Source: an uncultured Syntrophorhabdus sp. (GTDB lineage Bacteria; Desulfobacterota; BSN033; UBA1163). From it: a stretch of DNA of 64,000 nt. The notes beneath the pieces are model-generated. The model was not told the origin of the DNA. It ran no database searches and was given only the letters and a program-made list of their open reading frames with translations. Positions 9,100 through 62,881 of the stretch are shown here, piece by piece (position 1 is the stretch's first letter; each line of letters opens with the position of its first letter). Location: NCBI GenBank assembly GCA_964477935.1, contig CAYZFX010000003.1:48577-112576 (forward strand). Direction: 5' to 3'. Position numbers and translations under genes: made by a program.

Positions 9100-9125
9100 C
9101 CTCTTTCCTCCACCCTTTTTATAAT

Positions 9126-9155
9126 ATTATAACGAAGCCGGAGGCAATAGAAAAC
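9126..9155 (-). promoter_or_regulatory. Putative sigma70-type promoter of the DUF2007..cheR operon (perfect -10 TATAAT, weak -35)
   Basis: The minus-strand sequence reads TTTTCT-N17-TATAAT about 30 nt upstream of the GTG start. The MITE copy at 9167 lies about 12 bp upstream of the -35 box. Confidence 0.35.
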
Positions 9156-9166
9156 TATCTGAAATC

Positions 9167-9388
9167 GTAATCATTCAGTCAAGGGAATAAAAGGGGTTGG
9201 GAGGTTTCGCTGGAAAAACCTCGAGGCGAAACCCTTATTCATTGAAAGACCGATGCTCGCCTCAAAAGAAGACCATTCAAAAGGCAGCAAGACGAACTGG
9301 GGTCACTTCAATGCTCGTCATTCAAGGTTTTGGAGGGGGAATCTTCCAACCCTTTTGAACCCATGTGACCCCGCCACTATGGAATTAC
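9167..9388 (+). mobile_element. MITE-like repeat, copy 1 (222 bp), flanked by 8 bp direct repeats CTGAAATC at 9159-9166 and 9389-9396
   Basis: It shares about 85-90% identity with copies at 15598, 59310 and 61314. It has a degenerate 5' TIR GTAATCATTCAG and a 3' TIR CTATGGAATTAC. There is no long ORF with coding support. Confidence 0.75.
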
Positions 9389-9400
9389 CTGAAATCCCCT

Positions 9401-14554: not shown

Positions 14555-15520
14555 TTAAAGGCTGGGCGCTTCGACGATCTCGACCTTGAACTCTTTAGCC
14601 TGGGCAGGCAGGTCCTTAAAAACGACCATGAAGGGCAGGCGACTCCCCGGGGAAGCCATCAGGTCTTTCTCCGTTTTGGGTTGAAGGATCATATCGCCCG
14701 CAAAGAAGCCGGGGGGGAGATGCTTCAGCTCCCCACGACCGAGAACGGGACCGCAAAGGGTCTCCTTTTCCGCCACCTTTATCTTACTCTGATCGAAGAT
14801 AGTCACCCTGACCCTGATGAGCCTCTTCATCTTTGAGGATTGGTTGGCCACCTTCCCTTCAATAATATAGAGAGGAATGTCTCCCACCTTCTCCTCGTAT
14901 CCTGTGAGGTCCTTGAGGATCAATCCCTCCTTTTCCGTTCCCCAAAATCGTTCCCACCACCGGGTCGTCTGACCGATGGGGTCGCCCAGATAGGAGGAGA
15001 TTCTTCCTCCTGTGTCTATTTCTGTCCATACATAGAAGAGGCCAAGAAGGAGGAGGGTGATGACCACGAGGAGGGCAAGCAGGCGGGTGGGCCTCGGCCT
15101 ACTCCTTCTCACCCGCCACAAATCGGGACCCACCTTCTTTGGCGTTGCCTCCTGGGTGGGCTCCCTGACCTCCTCCGGCAATGGTTGGTCCCAAGGTTCG
15201 GCGGTTGTCGGAATTTTCTTGTCCGAGAAAAGCTCCTCCTCTTCCCGCCTTTCCTCTACGACCACCTCTCTCCCAGAAGTGGCCTCATCCCTCTCTGCCT
15301 GAGGGGGTTGCTCTGCCTCCCGTAGACCCGCCCCCATCAGTTCTTGATGATATCTGGCAAAAGACTCGAAGCCCTCCGCCACCTGCTCCACCGTTTCCGG
15401 AGGTCGAACGACATAAAAGACATGCTTGCATCTTGAACATCGAACCTTGGCTCCCTTCTCAGAAACCCGTGAATCATCGAGGTGATACTTCGTCAGGCAG
15501 GAGGCACAGGTCACGATCAT
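14555..15520 (-). CDS. MJ0042-type zinc-ribbon protein with TM segment and DUF3426 domain
   Basis: N-terminal CxxC...CxxC ribbon (MIVTCASCLTKYHL...CSRCKHVFYV), a Pro/Glu-rich linker, a TM helix and a C-terminal DUF3426-like region. Confidence 0.6.
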   Translation of the reverse strand: MIVTCASCLTKYHLDDSRVSEKGAKVRCSRCKHVFYVVRPPETVEQVAEGFESFARYHQELMGAGLREAEQPPQAERDEATSGREVVVEERREEEELFSDKKIPTTAEPWDQPLPEEVREPTQEATPKKVGPDLWRVRRSRPRPTRLLALLVVITLLLLGLFYVWTEIDTGGRISSYLGDPIGQTTRWWERFWGTEKEGLILKDLTGYEEKVGDIPLYIIEGKVANQSSKMKRLIRVRVTIFDQSKIKVAEKETLCGPVLGRGELKHLPPGFFAGDMILQPKTEKDLMASPGSRLPFMVVFKDLPAQAKEFKVEIVEAPSL

Positions 15521-15597
15521 GGGGATCCCCCTCCATTGCTATTTTTCCAAATTATGATGAAAGGGAGAGAAAAAAGCAAGGAAAAAAGCCCTGAGGA

Positions 15598-15820
15598 GTA
15601 ATCCCTCAGTCAAGGGAACAAAAAGGGTTGGGAGGTTCTTCCGGAAAAACCTTGAGGCGAAACCTTGATTCATTTAAACAGTGAGGCTTCCCTCAAAAGA
15701 ACACCATTCAAAAGGCAGGAAGACCCATTGGGGTCACTTCAATGCCCGCCATTCAAGGTTTTGGAGGGGGAATCTTCCAACCCCTTTGAACCCATGTGAC
15801 CCCGTAACTGAGGGGTTACG
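15598..15820 (+). mobile_element. MITE-like repeat, copy 2 (~222 bp), flanked by direct repeats CCTGAGGA at 15590-15597 and 15821-15828
   Basis: TIRs are GTAATCCCTCAG and CTGAGGGGTTAC. It lies between the zinc-ribbon gene and etfA, about 10 bp upstream of a putative -35 box for the zinc-ribbon gene. Confidence 0.75.
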
Positions 15821-15915
15821 CCTGAGGAGAAGATAGAGAACCCATTCCAATTACCCAATCCCCTTACCATATGGTCTGGGCATTGGAATAGGGTGTTCAG
15901 GTTTGATCGACAGGA

Positions 15916-30759: not shown

Positions 30760-30848
30760 TGGTGCCGGAGGTCGGATTCGAACCGACACGGGGTGTGAGC
30801 CCCGCGGGATTTTGAGTCCCGTGCGTCTACCAGTTTCACCACTCCGGC
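30760..30848 (-). tRNA. tRNA-Leu (anticodon CAA)
   Basis: Class II tRNA with a long variable arm, anticodon loop CUCAAAA, T-loop GGTTCGAATCC and an encoded CCA. Cloverleaf checked by hand. Confidence 0.85.
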
Positions 30849-30973: not shown

Positions 30974-31049
30974 GGGGCTGTAGCTCAGCTGGGAGAGCGC
31001 ATGAATGGCATTCATGAGGTCGTGGGTTCGATCCCCATCAGCTCCACCA
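30974..31049 (+). tRNA. tRNA-Ala (anticodon GGC)
   Basis: GGGGCUGUAGCUCAG with the G3:U70 alanine identity pair, anticodon loop AUGGCAU and an encoded CCA. Confidence 0.9.
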
Positions 31050-36455: not shown

Positions 36456-37040
36456 TCAATGAAGACCAAAGACTTCCTGGATGGCCGATATGGCTTCCAA
36501 TGAGTTCCACTCCCTCTGGCCGACGATCACTCCCTCCATCCACCCTTCCTGATTGATCAGATAAGCTGTCGGAATCATCCGGACGCCGTAGACCCTTGCG
36601 ATCCTCTCCTTCTGGTCAAGGAGGACAGGAAGGGTGATCCGGTATTCTTTAATGGTCGCCCGAACCTTCTTTTCCCTCTCCCCATCAACGGCAATGGTAA
36701 GGATCTCCAACCGTCCCCTAAACCGATCGTAAAATTTTTCCAGAAGGACCAGATCTTCCTTGCACGCCTGACACCAGGATCCCCAGAAGAAGAGAAGCAA
36801 CGGCTTCCCTTTGTAATCCCTCAGGGTCACCTCCTTCCCTCCCAGATCTCTCAGGAAGAAGGCAGGGGGTTCTCTCTTCATATCGAACCGATGAATCCCA
36901 AGAGACTCGCAAGGGTTTGTCTTCGAAGGAGGGGGCAGCATGGCCTGCGCCCCAACCTTCGAGATCAGGATCGGGAAGAGGAGACCCAGAAAGAGCCACT
37001 TTCGTCCTTTCCCCCTTTTGAAAAGCTGCAGACGTTCCAT
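36456..37040 (-). CDS. TlpA-like thiol:disulfide oxidoreductase (thioredoxin fold), secreted
   Basis: Signal peptide and a WCQAC active site. Confidence 0.7.
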   Translation of the reverse strand: MERLQLFKRGKGRKWLFLGLLFPILISKVGAQAMLPPPSKTNPCESLGIHRFDMKREPPAFFLRDLGGKEVTLRDYKGKPLLLFFWGSWCQACKEDLVLLEKFYDRFRGRLEILTIAVDGEREKKVRATIKEYRITLPVLLDQKERIARVYGVRMIPTAYLINQEGWMEGVIVGQREWNSLEAISAIQEVFGLH

Positions 37041-49391: not shown

Positions 49392-49466
49392 TGGTGGGCG
49401 CTAGAGGATTTGAACCTCTGACTTCCTGCGTGTGAAGCAGGCGTTCTCCCCCTGAACTAAGCGCCC
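49392..49466 (-). tRNA. tRNA-Val (anticodon CAC)
   Basis: GGGCGCUUAGUUCAG..., anticodon loop UUCACAC, T-loop GGUUCAAAUCC and an encoded CCA. Confidence 0.85.
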
Positions 49467-56967: not shown

Positions 56968-58290
56968 TTAAACAACCCTGTGAAAGGATTCGTCGAATTC
57001 CGGCTTCCCTTCAAATCGTTTCATAAAGAAACCCGCGGCCATGTCCATGGTCTCGAAGAACGTCGGGCTGGCATCGATCCCGGCTCTCTGAAGGGCATGG
57101 AGGGCCTCCCTCAGGTCGGGCGGGCACCCCTTCACCGCAATCATCTCCTGGATATGTTCGCTGTCCTGATTCGCCTCAACCATACACCGCCCTAACAGGA
57201 TCGTCTTCTTCTTTCCGGGGGTCGGTCTCATCCTCTTGCCGGTCAGGATCTCCACTTCATCCCAGGGGCTTCCCCTCCAGGCATGGGCAATGGCCATCAG
57301 CATGATCGTGGTGAAACCAGAACAGTAGGTGCAGATCGTATCATCATATTGGCGATAGGTCAGGCCTCTGATCCCGAGCTTCTCCAGGGGTTTAGGGAGG
57401 GTCCCATCGGCGGTATAAGGGAAGGCGTATTCATGGAGGGAGGCAACCGATTCAATCGGCTCTCCTTTTACCTCGACATCGGAGAAATCGAGAGGCCTTC
57501 CGAAATCCTGTGAGGCATAAACGAGATGAGGAACCTGCGTGGGTTCGTATCCTAATACCTTGGCCCCCACCTTATCCACGGAAAAGATATCGGGAGAGGC
57601 AATGAGGAGGTTGCTCCTCCTCAGTCTTCCCTCGAAAAAAGGCCCCCTCTCAGCGGTGAAGATCCCGTCGAGCAAGGTGAAGGAGGGCGGAAGTTGATTG
57701 GCAAGCCTGGCGACCCAATAATTCAGATTCTTCTCCGGGTCCGGATTGTGACACTTCTTTCTGGAGGGGACATCCACCAATCCCTTGAGGTTCTTGATGC
57801 CGAGGCTGACCACGGTCTGGGCGTGGGTCTTCAGGACCGGAAGGTTGACCACGAAGTCGGCTTCCAGAACATCTTCATTGAAGTTGAGAACCACCCCCGC
57901 CCCTAAATCTATCTTCCGGAAGGGTCGTTCGAAAACATTGACCGTTTTAATCCCGTAGCGTTTCTTTAAGATATTATACCCAAGGCTTTCGAAGGCGTGG
58001 GCAGGCGTCTCCCGGTCCTTCGGATCGAAGGTCGTGATCCCTTCGATGAGCGTAATGTCCCCTACTCCTCCCTCTTTGAGGAGGATCACCATATCTTCGA
58101 CCACCCGGGAGGTCGTCACCACCCCCCATTTCGGAAAAGGCGTGTTGCGGGTCCAGAAGACGATGTTGGGTTTGATAAAGACCTTTCCCCCGACAGGCAG
58201 ATGGGCAAGGCCTTGGCAGAGATCCACCGCTCTTCTGACCGATTCCAATGGCTTCTCATATTTCACAATCGCAACGAGATGTTTTTTCAT
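56968..58290 (-). CDS. DUF362 domain protein with C-terminal Cys motifs
   Basis: 440 aa. The N-terminal KVFIKPNIV region is typical of DUF362. Confidence 0.65.
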   Translation of the reverse strand: MKKHLVAIVKYEKPLESVRRAVDLCQGLAHLPVGGKVFIKPNIVFWTRNTPFPKWGVVTTSRVVEDMVILLKEGGVGDITLIEGITTFDPKDRETPAHAFESLGYNILKKRYGIKTVNVFERPFRKIDLGAGVVLNFNEDVLEADFVVNLPVLKTHAQTVVSLGIKNLKGLVDVPSRKKCHNPDPEKNLNYWVARLANQLPPSFTLLDGIFTAERGPFFEGRLRRSNLLIASPDIFSVDKVGAKVLGYEPTQVPHLVYASQDFGRPLDFSDVEVKGEPIESVASLHEYAFPYTADGTLPKPLEKLGIRGLTYRQYDDTICTYCSGFTTIMLMAIAHAWRGSPWDEVEILTGKRMRPTPGKKKTILLGRCMVEANQDSEHIQEMIAVKGCPPDLREALHALQRAGIDASPTFFETMDMAAGFFMKRFEGKPEFDESFHRVV

Positions 58291-58778
58291 GCCTCCCCCT
58301 TAAAGAGGATACCCATCTTCTCCAGTCCCAACAACTTTATATCCTAACCCAAAAGAGGTGTCAAACACCCCCTCTTGGGAACTCTTCCCTTTGAAACAGG
58401 GAAGATTCTCCCTAAAAGCTGCCCTCATCGCCGTGACCCTCAGGGATGAAGAGAATTACCACAAGGCAGAGGAGCGACTATTTCTGAGTATCATGGCCGA
58501 TGAGGCCCGAATCAGGCAGGGAAGGGAGAGGAAATCCTCAGTCAAGAGAAGTTTGTCAAGGATCTGCCCGAGGGGGTTAAGGAGATGGGAACCTCCAGTT
58601 TTTCCGACACGGAGATTAGGATCAAAGAGGCGGATCGCCTCTGGTGATTGACGGGAGGCCTCTCGGTCTTCCTCGTGAGATAGGACCGATCGCTCAATTT
58701 AGGTATCTAAAACCGTTGATTGACATTGGGGTCAATTTTTGATAGGATTTCGATAATCCCAAGAGAAGGAGGTCCCTG

Positions 58779-59096
58779 ATGATCAAACGGGGGAGAAAGA
58801 TCACGATCCTATTTCTGGTAATCTTATGGGTTACAGGAGGGATAGGGACTGAAGGATGGTCTCAGGAAAAACCCCAAGGGGAGAATCCACCGATCAGTGA
58901 TGGAAAAGCCTTCATCGATCTCGTGATTGCAAGGCCTATCGGGTTAGCCGTAGGCCTGTTGGGTGTGGGTATTTTCATAACCACGTTACCTTTTACCATT
59001 CCCACAAGAAGCGCGGATGAGGCCGCGAAGTCTCTTATCCTCGATCCCTTCAAGTTCTCTTTTGGTAGAAAATTCCCAGATGAGGATTTGAAATAG
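58779..59096 (+). CDS. Small hypothetical membrane/secreted protein
   Basis: 105 aa with a GGAGG RBS and two hydrophobic segments. Confidence 0.4.
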   Translation: MIKRGRKITILFLVILWVTGGIGTEGWSQEKPQGENPPISDGKAFIDLVIARPIGLAVGLLGVGIFITTLPFTIPTRSADEAAKSLILDPFKFSFGRKFPDEDLK

Positions 59097-59309
59097 CCCT
59101 CTCTCGTGTGAAATCGTGAAAAAAAGAGAGGTCCCTCAATATTCCGCGATCTTCCCTGTGGGGAACCTATATCCCTTAGGGGGAGAGAGGCATTTCTCTC
59201 CTAAAAGACCCCCCACCGGTGGAAATCTTAAAACCGACGATAAAATCCTTGTTAAAAAAGTCCCGTGGCCAACACTTCACCCCACCATACAAGATCCTAA
59301 GCTATCCCA

Positions 59310-59406
59310 GTAATCCTTTAGTCAAGGGAACAAAAAGGGTTGGGAGGTTCTTCCGAAAAAAAACCTTGAGGCGAACCCTTGATTCATTGAAAGACGGAGG
59401 GGATAC
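59310..59406 (+). mobile_element. MITE-like repeat, copy 3 (97 bp internal-deletion derivative), flanked by perfect 8 bp direct repeats CTATCCCA at 59302-59309 and 59407-59414
   Basis: It retains the 5' TIR GTAATCCTTTAG and the first about 85 bp of the element plus a degenerate 3' end GGATAC. Confidence 0.65.
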
Positions 59407-59425
59407 CTATCCCAAAAGTTTTTGC

Positions 59426-59455
59426 TTGACAGGTCTTAGATCATTTTGGTAGATT
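59426..59455 (+). promoter_or_regulatory. Sigma70-like promoter TTGACA-N18-TAGATT for the acyl-CoA dehydrogenase
   Basis: -35 at 59426-59431, 12 bp downstream of the MITE copy 3 duplication. GGAGG RBS before the ATG at 59511. Confidence 0.45.
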
Positions 59456-59510: not shown

Positions 59511-61289
59511 ATGGTCGAATTCGTCAAAGGGGGGGCGTTTCTGATCGAGTCGACTTCGCCCCAGGAGGTCTTCACGCCGGAGGACTTCAATGAAGAACAG
59601 CTCTTGATTGCCAAGGCCGTGACCGAATTTGTGGAAGGCGAAATCCATCCCGTAAGCGAGGAGATCGAGGAGAAGAAAGAAGGCCTTCTGGTGAGCCTCC
59701 TCAGGAAGGCTGGGGAGCTCGGCTTCCTTTCCGCGGACATCCCGGAGGAATACGGAGGACAGGATCTGGATAAGGTCAGCTCTCTCCTCCTCTGGGAGAA
59801 GATGGCTCAGGCAGGGGGGTCTTTTATGGCGACGTTTGGCACGCAAACCGGAATTGGATCCCTTCCCATTGTCTTCTTCGGAAATCCGGACCAGAAGCGG
59901 CGGTATCTTCCTGGGCTGGCCACGGGAAAGATCATCGGCGCCTATGCCCTGACCGAACCGGAAGCGGGTTCGGACGCCCTTAACGCCAAGACCACGGCCA
60001 CCCTCAGTCCCGATGGGAAATATTATATCCTCAACGGTCAGAAGCAGTTCATCACCAATGCCGGCATTGCGGACCTCTTCACCACCTATGCCAAGGTGGA
60101 TGGAACGAAATTCACCGCCTTCCTCGTCGAACGAAAGTATGAAGGGGTTTCTCTGGATGAGGAAGAGAATAAGATGGGGGTGAAGGGTTCCTCCACCCGG
60201 AGCGTAATCTTCTCCGACGTTAAGGTCCCTGTGGAAAATGTCCTCGGAGAGGTCGGAAGGGGACACATCGTAGCTCTCAACGTGCTCAACATGGGTCGTT
60301 TCGCCCTGGGAGCAGGGAACTTAGGAGGAGCGAAGCGGGCTCTCCAGGAATCTGTCTCTTATGCCAAAAAGAGGGTCCAGTTTGGCAGGCCCATTGCTGA
60401 ATTCGGCCTGATCAAAGAAAAGATCGCCGAAATGGCCATCCTCTGCTTTATCATGGAGAGCATGGTCTACCGAACCGGAGGGTTGACCGATCAGATTCTC
60501 AAAACCATCGACCGTCAAGCCGAGGACGCCATGACCCAGATGGCCAACGGGATCGAGGAATACAATATTGAAGATTCGATCAATAAGATCTTCTGCTCCG
60601 AAATGACCGGCCATGTGGTGGATGAGGCGGTTCAGATCCACGGGGGATATGGGTATATTCACGACTACCCGGTGGAGCGGGGGTATCGGGATGCCCGGAT
60701 CAATCGCATCTGGGAGGGGACGAACGAAATCAACCGTCTTCTCATCGTGGACATGTTAACGAAGCGTGCGATGAAGGGACGACTCCCTGTCCTTGCGGCC
60801 ACTCAGAAGATTGTTGGAGAGCTGCTCAGCCTCCGGCCCCGAATCGAGAGCGATGATGGAAAATTAACCATGCAACAGGAGATGGTCGAGATGTCAAAAA
60901 AGATCACCCTCCTGGTGACCGGAGCGGCTGTGCAGAAATATATGATGAAACTCGCCGAGGAACAGGAACTCCTGGGGTTAATCAGCGATATGGTGATTCA
61001 GGTATTTGCGATGGAGAGCGGACTGCTTCGAGCCATGAAGACCCTCGAGAGATTTGGGGACGAAAGAGCTCAGATCCAGAAAGCGATGGCAAAGGTCTTT
61101 GTCAACGACGCCTTTGAAAGGCTGGAGGGCTATGCCAAAAGAGGACTTACCGCCGTGGCTGAGGGAGATACCCTCAGGACCCAGCTCTCCGGTCTCAAGA
61201 AGCTCACCCGTTTCACCCCGGTCAATACGATCGCTCTGAGGCGGGAGATCGCAGATGCCGTGATTAAGGCGGGTAGGTATCCCTTTTAG
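59511..61289 (+). CDS. Acyl-CoA dehydrogenase (long form with C-terminal extension)
   Basis: 592 aa with ACAD N-terminal, middle and C-terminal domains (YALTEPEAGSDA, QIHGGYGY). Confidence 0.85.
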   Translation: MVEFVKGGAFLIESTSPQEVFTPEDFNEEQLLIAKAVTEFVEGEIHPVSEEIEEKKEGLLVSLLRKAGELGFLSADIPEEYGGQDLDKVSSLLLWEKMAQAGGSFMATFGTQTGIGSLPIVFFGNPDQKRRYLPGLATGKIIGAYALTEPEAGSDALNAKTTATLSPDGKYYILNGQKQFITNAGIADLFTTYAKVDGTKFTAFLVERKYEGVSLDEEENKMGVKGSSTRSVIFSDVKVPVENVLGEVGRGHIVALNVLNMGRFALGAGNLGGAKRALQESVSYAKKRVQFGRPIAEFGLIKEKIAEMAILCFIMESMVYRTGGLTDQILKTIDRQAEDAMTQMANGIEEYNIEDSINKIFCSEMTGHVVDEAVQIHGGYGYIHDYPVERGYRDARINRIWEGTNEINRLLIVDMLTKRAMKGRLPVLAATQKIVGELLSLRPRIESDDGKLTMQQEMVEMSKKITLLVTGAAVQKYMMKLAEEQELLGLISDMVIQVFAMESGLLRAMKTLERFGDERAQIQKAMAKVFVNDAFERLEGYAKRGLTAVAEGDTLRTQLSGLKKLTRFTPVNTIALRREIADAVIKAGRYPF

Positions 61290-61313
61290 AAACAGATCTT
61301 AAAAGGGACGTCG

Positions 61314-61499
61314 TCATCCCTCAGTCAAGGGAACAAAAAGGGCTTGATTCAATGAAAGACGGAGGCTCGCCTCAAAAGAACCCCATTCAAAAGGCAGGAA
61401 GATCCATGGGGGTCACTTCAATGCCCGCCATTCAAGGTTTTTGGAGGGGGAATCTCCCAACCCTTTTGAACCCATGTGACCCCGTACCTGAGGGATTAC
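61314..61499 (+). mobile_element. MITE-like repeat, copy 4 (186 bp), with perfect 12 bp TIRs GTCATCCCTCAG/CTGAGGGATTAC and perfect 8 bp direct repeats GGGACGTC (61306-61313 and 61500-61507)
   Basis: It lacks an internal ~38 bp segment present in copies 1 and 2. It lies between the acyl-CoA dehydrogenase and the beta-lactamase-family gene. Confidence 0.8.
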
Positions 61500-61618
61500 G
61501 GGACGTCCCCATTTCCCTTGAGAGGAAGGGAGGTCACCTCCAAGAACGGCCGAGGGTCCTCTCAAAAGAGATACCAAAGGCCTCCGTATCCGTAAGGGAG
61601 AGAGAAAGGAGGAAAGCC

Positions 61619-62881
61619 ATGCGAAACGTGATCCGGATCCCTGCTGTCGCCATTCTTCTTACCTTTCTTCTTGGGACGGCGATAGCCCAGGACCTCCAAC
61701 AAGCAAGAGGCCCGGAAGAAGTCGGTCTATCTTCGGAAAGGCTCCAACGCCTGGATGCGGTTTTAAAAGGGGATATCGAATGGGGTAAAATCAATGGAGC
61801 GGTCCTCCTGATCGCCCGTAAGGGAAAGATCGCCTACTTTAAGAATTTCGGCTGGAGAGACGCTGAAAAGAGATTACCAATGGAAAAGGATTCGATCTTT
61901 CGAGTCTACTCCATGACGAAATCAATCACGGCCGTCGCCACGGCCATGTTCATGGAAGAGGGGAAGATCCTCCTCTCCGACCCCGTCGCCAAATATATCC
62001 CCTCCTTTAAGGAAATCCAGGTGGGAGAGATCAAAAAAGATGAGACAGGAAAAGAGGTACTCTCTCTGGTGGCGCCCAGGACGGCCATGACGATCTATGA
62101 CTTACTCCTCCACACCTCAGGCCTGAGCTACTTCTTCTTTCCTCCAAGGCTTATCCAGGAAAGGTATCTGGCGGCTGGAATGCACCGCCTCGAAGAATTG
62201 ACCAATGCAGAGGTCTGTGAGAGATTGGCCAGATTGCCTCTGGTGGCCCATCCGGGAACCCGTTATCAGTACGGCATGTCGTATGACGTCTTGGGAAGAG
62301 TGCTGGAAGTCATCTCTGGAAGGCCTCTCGATCAACTTTTTGAAGAACGGATATTTAGACCGCTCAAGATGAAGGATTCGGGATTTCGGGTCAAAGAATC
62401 CGAAGCCAATCGCCTCGTATACCTCGACCCCAAAGTACCCATTTATATTGATCCGACGAGCCCAGTGAGGAGATATATGAGCGGCGGAGCAGGAACCGTA
62501 TCGACGGCCATGGACTTTGCTCGTTTCGCTCAGATGCTTCTCAACGGAGGAGAGATTGACGGGGTCCGGTTGCTCAGTTCGAGAACCGTCTCCTATATGA
62601 CCACAGATCACTTAGGGCCGTTGGGACACCGGGATGATCCCCTCTATGTTCCAGGCCGGGGGTACGGTCAGGGCTTCGATTTCTATGTTCGTCTCGAAAC
62701 GGGACGATCCACCTTTTTGGGTAACCCCGGAGAATTCTACAAGGGAGGGATTGCAGGAACCCATTTCTGGGTCGATCCCAAAGAAGCATTGGGGGCTGTC
62801 TTTATGGTCAGCGCCCCAGATTATCGAGAGTACTACCGGTTTCTGATCAAAAGCCTGATATACCAGGCCATTATGATGTAA
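61619..62881 (+). CDS. Serine hydrolase of the beta-lactamase/transpeptidase-like family, secreted
   Basis: Start at MRNVIRIP after a GGAGG RBS. Signal peptide and an S-x-x-K motif (SMTKS). The ORF-track start at 61352 would run through the MITE. Confidence 0.75.
   Translation: MRNVIRIPAVAILLTFLLGTAIAQDLQQARGPEEVGLSSERLQRLDAVLKGDIEWGKINGAVLLIARKGKIAYFKNFGWRDAEKRLPMEKDSIFRVYSMTKSITAVATAMFMEEGKILLSDPVAKYIPSFKEIQVGEIKKDETGKEVLSLVAPRTAMTIYDLLLHTSGLSYFFFPPRLIQERYLAAGMHRLEELTNAEVCERLARLPLVAHPGTRYQYGMSYDVLGRVLEVISGRPLDQLFEERIFRPLKMKDSGFRVKESEANRLVYLDPKVPIYIDPTSPVRRYMSGGAGTVSTAMDFARFAQMLLNGGEIDGVRLLSSRTVSYMTTDHLGPLGHRDDPLYVPGRGYGQGFDFYVRLETGRSTFLGNPGEFYKGGIAGTHFWVDPKEALGAVFMVSAPDYREYYRFLIKSLIYQAIMM

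Follow-up and report, generated by a model that had tools for sequence, protein, structure and literature searches.

A repeat family with the anatomy of non-autonomous DNA transposons and a possible promoter-guided choice of target in an uncultured Desulfobacterota/Syntrophales-like bacterium

A short repeat occurs four times in a 64-kb stretch of DNA from an uncultured Desulfobacterota/Syntrophales-like bacterium (the window, by which we mean the whole stretch that was analysed). This locus raises the question of what kind of element the repeat is, and whether the places where it sits were chosen. In our judgement the copies very probably form a family of non-autonomous DNA transposons (miniature inverted-repeat elements, MITEs), mobilised in trans and with promoter-guided target choice; the promoter-guided part is held less firmly, as worded below. 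We read the repeat as a MITE because its copies are dispersed and flanked by target duplications, empty sites exist, deletion derivatives keep both ends, Rfam holds no match and no transposase gene is present.

Anatomy and genomic context of the copies

All four window copies (c1 to c4) lie on the + strand (Table 1). A search with the 21-mer GTAATCCCTCAGTCAAGGGAA, allowing at most three mismatches, matched the window at 9167, 15598, 59310 and 61313, always in + orientation, and gave 0 matches in 100 dinucleotide shuffles, which confirmed the four positions proposed by the initial annotation. The pairwise identity among these copies, estimated there at about 85-90%, is 82-90% by BLASTN. A full copy is about 222 bp long and forms an imperfect long palindrome, with 12-bp terminal inverted repeats (TIRs) GTAATCCCTCAG / CTGAGGGrTTAC; the similarity of the left and right ends, itself imperfect, reaches about 22 bp. 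Among the copies c2 is nearest to the family consensus, while alignment reveals that c4 is missing the 38-bp internal hairpin of the other copies. For c4, the perfect 8-bp duplication GGGACGTC first reported was found again; its TIRs, reported as perfect over 12 bp, match at 11 of 12 positions. That each copy has a different 8-bp duplication was also confirmed for c1 to c4, the c2 duplication being displaced by one base.

A blind structural scan for TIR-like pairs with at most three mismatches, accompanied by an 8-bp duplication with at most one mismatch and spaced 30-2500 bp apart, returned c1, c3 and c4 only in the window, and L011 and L033 among the fetched loci. A reading of c3 as a 5' fragment, cut off at the promoter of the acyl-CoA dehydrogenase (ACAD) gene, was rejected, since c3 has a right terminus (CGGAGGGGATAC) and a duplication (CTATCCCA) of its own. 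Copy sizes range from 68 to 222 bp and no copy encodes a protein: the open reading frames within them span at most 51-53 codons and are broken by indels between copies, which agrees with the earlier statement that no transposase is encoded.

Table 1. Repeat copies, duplications, neighbouring genes and promoter-like sites (window positions unless a locus is named)
Feature	Position	Strand	Description
c1	9167-9388	+	222 bp; degenerate TIRs GTAATCATTCAG / CTATGGAATTAC, 8/12 match
c1 duplication	9159-9166 and 9389-9396		CTGAAATC; 8 bp, perfect
c1 neighbours			Rubrerythrin-like gene (-) / HTH-cupin regulator (+)
Weaker promoter-like site	9119-9147	-	TTGCCT, 17-nt spacer, TTATAA; -35 lies 19 nt from c1 left end, reads outward towards rubrerythrin-like gene
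c2	15598-15819	+	222 bp; TIRs GTAATCCCTCAG / CTGAGGGGTTAC, 11/12 match
c2 duplication	15590-15597 and 15821-15828		CCTGAGGA; displaced 1 nt by extra G at 15820
c2 neighbours			Zinc-ribbon/DUF3426 gene 14555-15520 (-) / Fe-S ETF-alpha gene (-)
Promoter-like site of zinc-ribbon/DUF3426 gene	15551-15579	-	TTGCTT, 17-nt spacer, CATAAT; -35 lies 18 nt from c2 left end, reads away; conserved in element-free L036
c3	59310-59406	+	97 bp, complete, internally deleted; TIRs GTAATCCTTTAG / CGGAGGGGATAC, 7/12 match; upstream of ACAD gene 59511-61289 (+)
c3 duplication	59302-59309 and 59407-59414		CTATCCCA; 8 bp, perfect
ACAD promoter	59426-59455	+	TTGACA, 18-nt spacer, TAGATT, upstream TG; -35 lies 19 nt past c3 right end; conserved in L006-L009
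c4	61313-61499	+	187 bp; TIRs GTCATCCCTCAG / CTGAGGGATTAC, 11/12 match (position 3 C vs A)
c4 duplication	61305-61312 and 61500-61507		GGGACGTC; 8 bp, perfect
c4 neighbours			ACAD gene 59511-61289 / beta-lactamase-family gene 61619-62881
TTGAGA hexamer	61518-61523	+	18 nt from c4 right end; poor -10
L011 copy	L011:879-946		68 bp; TIR match 10/12; perfect duplication CAGGAAAT, 8/8
L033 copy			77 bp; TIR match 11/12; duplication GGAAGAGA / GGAAAAGA, 7/8
L025 flank			TTGAGA at 18-19 nt
L026 flank			TTGAAA at 18-19 nt
Solitary 12-bp terminus	36813-36824	+	Exact GTAATCCCTCAG, apparently inside a coding region
tRNA gene	30763-30848	-	Rfam match; no adjoining element copy
tRNA gene	30974-31046	+	Rfam match; no adjoining element copy
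tRNA gene	49395-49466	-	Rfam match; no adjoining element copy

All window copies are intergenic, and c2 is antisense to both adjoining genes. The best named relatives of the ACAD come from MAGs labelled Desulfobacterota, Syntrophaceae or Deltaproteobacteria. Several details of these surroundings deserve a record of their own. The mechanical open reading frame of the beta-lactamase-family gene (61352-62881, +) has its ATG at 61352, inside c4, and the true start is the ATG at 61619, preceded by GGAGGAAAGCC; automatic annotation could falsely extend this protein at its N-terminus by 89 codons of MITE sequence. The interval between the DUF362 and ACAD genes (58290-59310) is about 1 kb in the window, holds TctCBA and an AMP-binding gene over about 5 kb in an 82% relative (L004:4938-10001), and upstream of the ACAD gene in 95% relatives (L006:1-1008) there is yet another sequence; on these comparisons the interval is an apparent rearrangement hotspot, with its right boundary coinciding with c3. 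In another locus of assembly GCA_026415035.1 (L005:9246-9734, -), a 162-aa HTH_32 gene (transposase-type helix-turn-helix) directly upstream of the ACAD gene occupies the position that c3 has in the window, and it shows no similarity to the MITE. Finally, the solitary 12-bp terminus at 36813-36824 has surroundings without similarity to the element, and chance alone would place about 0.008 exact copies in the window, so this terminus may be either a solo end or coincidental.

Mobility and the nature of the element

The initial annotation had proposed a search for empty sites, and they were found at three places. The site of c4 is empty in L006-L008, loci whose ACAD protein is 95% identical and which carry the same ACAD/beta-lactamase gene pair; the spacer between the two genes measures 125 bp there versus 329 bp in the window, and the window sequence minus c4 and one copy of its duplication aligns across the junction. 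These loci lack c3 as well and keep the ACAD promoter. L009, a 99% relative, has both c3 and c4, and its contig starts and finishes within them. At the c2 site there is no element in L036 (GCA_026415035.1), where the adjoining promoter region is kept. Upstream of prmA, the element is present in L027 and in its 97% relative L037, and in L038 (also GCA_026415035.1) the site is empty with the promoter kept. No element copies were found in 87 kb of related loci.

The expectation of many more copies was borne out in public metagenomes. A scan with a 21-mer returned 24 contigs, two of which correspond, at 99.9% identity, to the c3 and c2 loci of the window itself, and the other 22 are further insertion sites with unrelated flanks, sharing nothing with the window or with each other beyond the element. 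Seventeen of the 24 contigs terminate 28-40 nt inside the element, as expected of a repeat that collapses short-read assembly, for which such ends are the usual signature. In all 26 distinct left flanks homology ends exactly at the terminal G, and the left ends of many metagenome copies are identical over 29-39 nt.

Deletion derivatives of 68, 77 and 97 bp (L011, L033 and c3) all keep both ends. The 68-bp form, with the junction GGGAA|TCTTCCAAC, lies at three loci with different flanks (L010, L011 and L030), and therefore the deleted form itself has multiplied; about 21 nt of the left end and 16-47 nt of the right end seem, as judged from these derivatives, to be sufficient in cis. A separate observation concerns the c2 left junction near 15590 in a 97% relative (L035:1-60, Logan SRR8369793), which has 24 nt more than the window, in the order flank CCTAAGGA, GTAATCCCTCAGTTACGG (the inverted right terminus, 18 nt), TTTTTT and the normal left end. 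The additional 24 nt may have been left by a second insertion at this promoter-proximal site, or may have arisen as an artefact of assembly.

A scan of 185,579 GTDB species representatives with the 21-mer AGTCAAGGGAAYAAAARGGG gave three unrelated chance matches only (Treponema, Corynebacterium and a Syntrophales MAG), so the family is narrow and the sample hard to enlarge; no match was found in viral contigs by scanning or in plasmids by BLAST.

Are these copies still part of a mobile family, or are they inert relics (joined ends or decayed copies) of an extinct transposon with no parent left in the lineage? The copies differ by 10-18%, and given this divergence many of them may be old and have lost their mobility; c1 and c3 have degenerate TIRs, and neither a parent insertion sequence (IS) nor a matching transposase was found in the window or the fetched loci. 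However, the parent search covered 64 kb of the host genome only, the insertions are present in the window lineage and its 97-99% relatives and absent from the 95% relatives, many metagenome copies share identical left ends, and one deletion derivative spread to three loci. It seems to us improbable that the family consists of relics.

Two further readings of the copies were weighed. First, the copies might be structured non-coding RNA genes or cis-regulatory RNA elements, the end repeats being part of the fold, as the + strand of c2 is far more stably folded than its shuffled versions (z = -7.2) and the four window copies share the + orientation. Yet the strand asymmetry of c2 (z = -7.2 versus -3.9) is small in c1 and reversed in c4; the minus strand also folds well, and better in c4, which makes the structure a property of palindromic DNA. 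The Rfam search that had been suggested at the outset yielded no matching family: at the gathering threshold, Rfam 15 gave only the three window tRNAs and nothing on the element, and a permissive search on the element reached best E values of 1-10 and 14-16 bits against cut-offs of 40-75. Besides, c2 is antisense to both of its neighbours, the deletions strip most of the "structure" while ends and duplications persist, and RNA genes would not be expected to show target duplications or empty sites, so that we give the RNA reading very little credence.

Secondly, a long imperfect palindrome that is intergenic and present in many copies resembles REP/BIME-like or IS200/IS605-type palindromic elements (PATEs), which would be moved as single-stranded hairpins by a tyrosine HUH transposase (RAYT/TnpA). 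Elements of the HUH type leave the target unduplicated and lack terminal inverted repeats in the DDE sense. In our family every complete copy is bordered by an 8-bp duplication, unrelated in sequence between copies, and the fixed tetra- or pentanucleotide target at the junctions was not seen, which leaves this origin highly implausible as well. The earlier description of a MITE-like family is upheld by the dispersed copies, the 8-bp duplications, the empty sites and the lack of coding capacity.

Candidate parent and comparison with known elements

Read from the anatomy, a DDE transposase encoded elsewhere would recognise both element ends and join them to a target whose strands are cut 8 bp apart, and repair of this stagger would yield the 8-bp duplication. 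The 8-bp length had first been taken as compatible with several families, for example IS256, ISL3, IS66 or hAT-like ones, and among those listed IS66 fits best; the parent IS was not found. Judged by the resemblance of the ends and the length of the duplication, the most likely mobiliser would be an enzyme of the IS66 family, of the single-ORF ISBst12 type, and we put this assignment at about even chances.

The terminal repeats of IS66 elements begin GTAAGCG, and their direct repeats are 8 bp (PMC11946415). The ends of our element start with GTAA (GTAATCCCTCAG, GTAAyCCCTCAG) and its duplication length agrees with the family, while over the extended consensus the ends read GTAATCC instead of GTAAGCG. 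ISDge4 of Deinococcus geothermalis, a member of the ISBst12 group with the ends GTGACTACTCAGCA / GTAACTGCTCAGCA and an 8-bp direct repeat, likewise departs from this consensus with GTAACTG (PMC12898284). Compared with GTAACTGCTCAGCA of ISDge4, the element terminus GTAATCCCTCAGTC has the same base at 9 of 14 positions, among them GTAA and CTCAG (positions 8-12), and in both elements the 8-bp duplication is of variable sequence. IS66/ISBst12 members differ in being about 1.4-2.7 kb long with a transposase, against 68-222 bp without a transposase gene in our family.

Terminal similarity of this sort is not specific to one family, because ends resembling GTAACTATTCAG also occur in an ISLre2-type element: the repeats of the ISGka4 homologue on pHTA426 contain GTAACTATTCAG, which resembles the c1 terminus GTAATCATTCAG, with three further bases preceding GTAA in the repeat, and at NCBI the transposase is listed as "IS66-like". 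ISGka4 of Geobacillus kaustophilus, of the ISLre2 family, makes 9-bp duplications (PMC8024623), and those of our element are 8 bp. By tblastn, no IS66- or ISLre2-like transposase was found in the window and about 200 kb of fetched loci, and the structural scan to 2.5 kb gave no IS-sized element with matching ends in the window and the fetched loci. The solitary 12-mer at 36813 was also considered as the end of a parent IS and rejected, as it shows no further similarity to the element. No autonomous element with these ends was found, so that mobilisation in trans and the IS66 assignment stand as inferences.

Among described MITEs, MITEPsy1 of Pseudomonas syringae is 100 nt long with an 18-nt TIR and a 4-nt duplication, and was trapped while transposing (PMC3189936), and MITECca01 of Cardinium is IS982-derived (PMC9769881). 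They share with our family a small size, lack of coding capacity, TIRs, a duplication of fixed length, many dispersed copies, a restricted host range, IS-like ends and presumed mobilisation in trans, and they differ from it in sequence, TIRs, duplication length and host. Unlike MITEPsy1 (PMC3189936), our element is known to be mobile from the comparison of empty sites only. The literature search for MITEs in Syntrophales and for IS66-derived MITEs returned nothing relevant. As far as can be told from Rfam, the GTDB representatives and the literature searched, the family is new and ordinary in kind. As a MITE, it adds only one family to a class that is well known, from a little-studied lineage of uncultured Desulfobacterota, and it accounts for the breaks of that organism's short-read assemblies at these sites.

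Spacing between insertions and promoters

For the surroundings of the insertions, we read the flanks outward from the element end, 32 in all (26 distinct left and 6 right), so that most insertions are represented by their left flank only. An exact outward-reading TTGACA stands at offset 19, i.e., the 8-nt duplication plus 11 nt, in 6 of the 32 flanks (left of L016, L017, L027 and L032; right of L011 and c3), and over the first 120 nt of all 32 flanks the exact hexamer recurs only three times, at offset 14 and twice at 38. In 200,000 circular-shift randomisations, six exact TTGACA never fell at one offset; when one mismatch was allowed, seven flanks had the hexamer at offset 19 (P = 5e-6). In all six flanks with the exact hexamer, TAnnnT follows 16-18 nt downstream of TTGACA and is followed by a gene. 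The six downstream genes are unrelated, namely a small protein, a nucleotidyltransferase-like protein, PrmA, a periplasmic binding protein, another small protein and the ACAD.

A TTG at offset 18 or 19 is found in 11 of the 32 flanks, and about two thirds of them have no -35 at 18-19 nt. By copy, a -35-like hexamer lies on one side in all four window copies and in five of the six copies with both flanks known (for individual sites, see Table 1); the TTGAGA beside c4 may be there by chance. The promoters were not brought by the element, because the duplication sits between the two and the promoter is conserved in an element-free relative; those beside the c2 site and upstream of prmA are both present without the element (L036 and L038).

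If the hexamer is taken as -35 to -30, the element junction falls at about -55. This is about as far upstream as RNA polymerase usually reaches on sigma-70 promoters, and a junction there leaves the core promoter and the UP-element zone intact. Two ways of arriving at such a pattern have to be weighed, namely choice by the transposition machinery and survival after random insertion.

In the survival account, the MITE is the same and the 19-nt position reflects which insertions persisted rather than what the transposase chose: insertions in genes or core promoters would be lost, and those just outside the polymerase footprint would be tolerated or even favoured, for example if the hairpin insulated the promoter from read-through. 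The intergenic position of all copies seen fits this account, as does a junction at about -55 that spares the -35, the -10 and the UP-element zone, and the long stable hairpin of the element could indeed stop read-through. Purifying selection, however, predicts a boundary, with anything beyond about -55 tolerated, and the data show a single-nucleotide peak (exact hexamers six times at offset 19, once at 14, twice at 38 and nowhere else within 120 nt); moreover, as the downstream genes are unrelated, any shared benefit would have to be generic. We therefore regard survival as a rather unlikely explanation of the 19-nt position, and selection may be a contributor to the promoter pattern.

Promoter-guided choice is favoured because purifying selection alone would hardly yield such a single-nucleotide peak. 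From the flanking sequences, it appears reasonably probable that the target choice is non-random and guided by promoters, with the bound polymerase/sigma or the -35 sequence being read by the transposition complex. A more specific version, to which we would give somewhat less than even chances, is that the transposase reads promoter architecture and inserts the element at about -55, upstream of the -35 hexamer and separated from it by exactly 19 bp. Such reading could proceed via contact with promoter-bound RNA polymerase/sigma, or via a DNA-binding domain of the transposase resembling sigma region 4.

Other target rules were tried on the same flanks. A palindromic target consensus was rejected, since the hexamer stands on one side only of each complete copy. 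The flank TTGACA as a mimic of the element's subterminal GTCAAG, in the manner of the inverted-repeat targeting of IS30 and IS911, was rejected as well, as its orientation relative to the cut site is opposite and the remaining flank has no resemblance to the element end. As a separate observation, purine-rich target sites (AGGAAG, GGAGGA, GAAAAAAA; element top strand) occur in the left flanks of L014, L026, L029, L033, L028 and c2, and A is over-represented at position -9 of the left flanks; these may reflect a weak secondary target preference.

The nearest functional parallel lies in a different domain of life. The yeast retrotransposons Ty3 and Ty1 integrate at genes transcribed by RNA polymerase III, where their integrases are tethered by Pol III factors. 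The likeness is one of function only, i.e., a fixed or narrow distance from a transcription-initiation signal with the gene left intact; Ty3 and Ty1 are retrotransposons, and our element is a probable DNA transposon. We know of no report of a promoter-distance preference in the IS66 family, and none was found in the literature searched; nor did that literature yield a report of transposons inserting at a fixed distance from the -35. A fixed 19-nt spacing to the -35 is not described for MITEPsy1 (PMC3189936) or MITECca01 (PMC9769881).

If promoter-guided integration is true, the family would offer, among bacterial DNA transposons, a counterpart to the Pol III-guided integration of Ty elements, and a natural means of placing DNA beside promoters without inactivating them. 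If the spacing reflects target choice, it would represent a way of selecting sites that is new for bacterial DDE transposons, and would help in studying how promoters or bound RNA polymerase are sensed by a transposition complex; the insertions would also mark a set of promoters, ready for use, in an uncultured organism.
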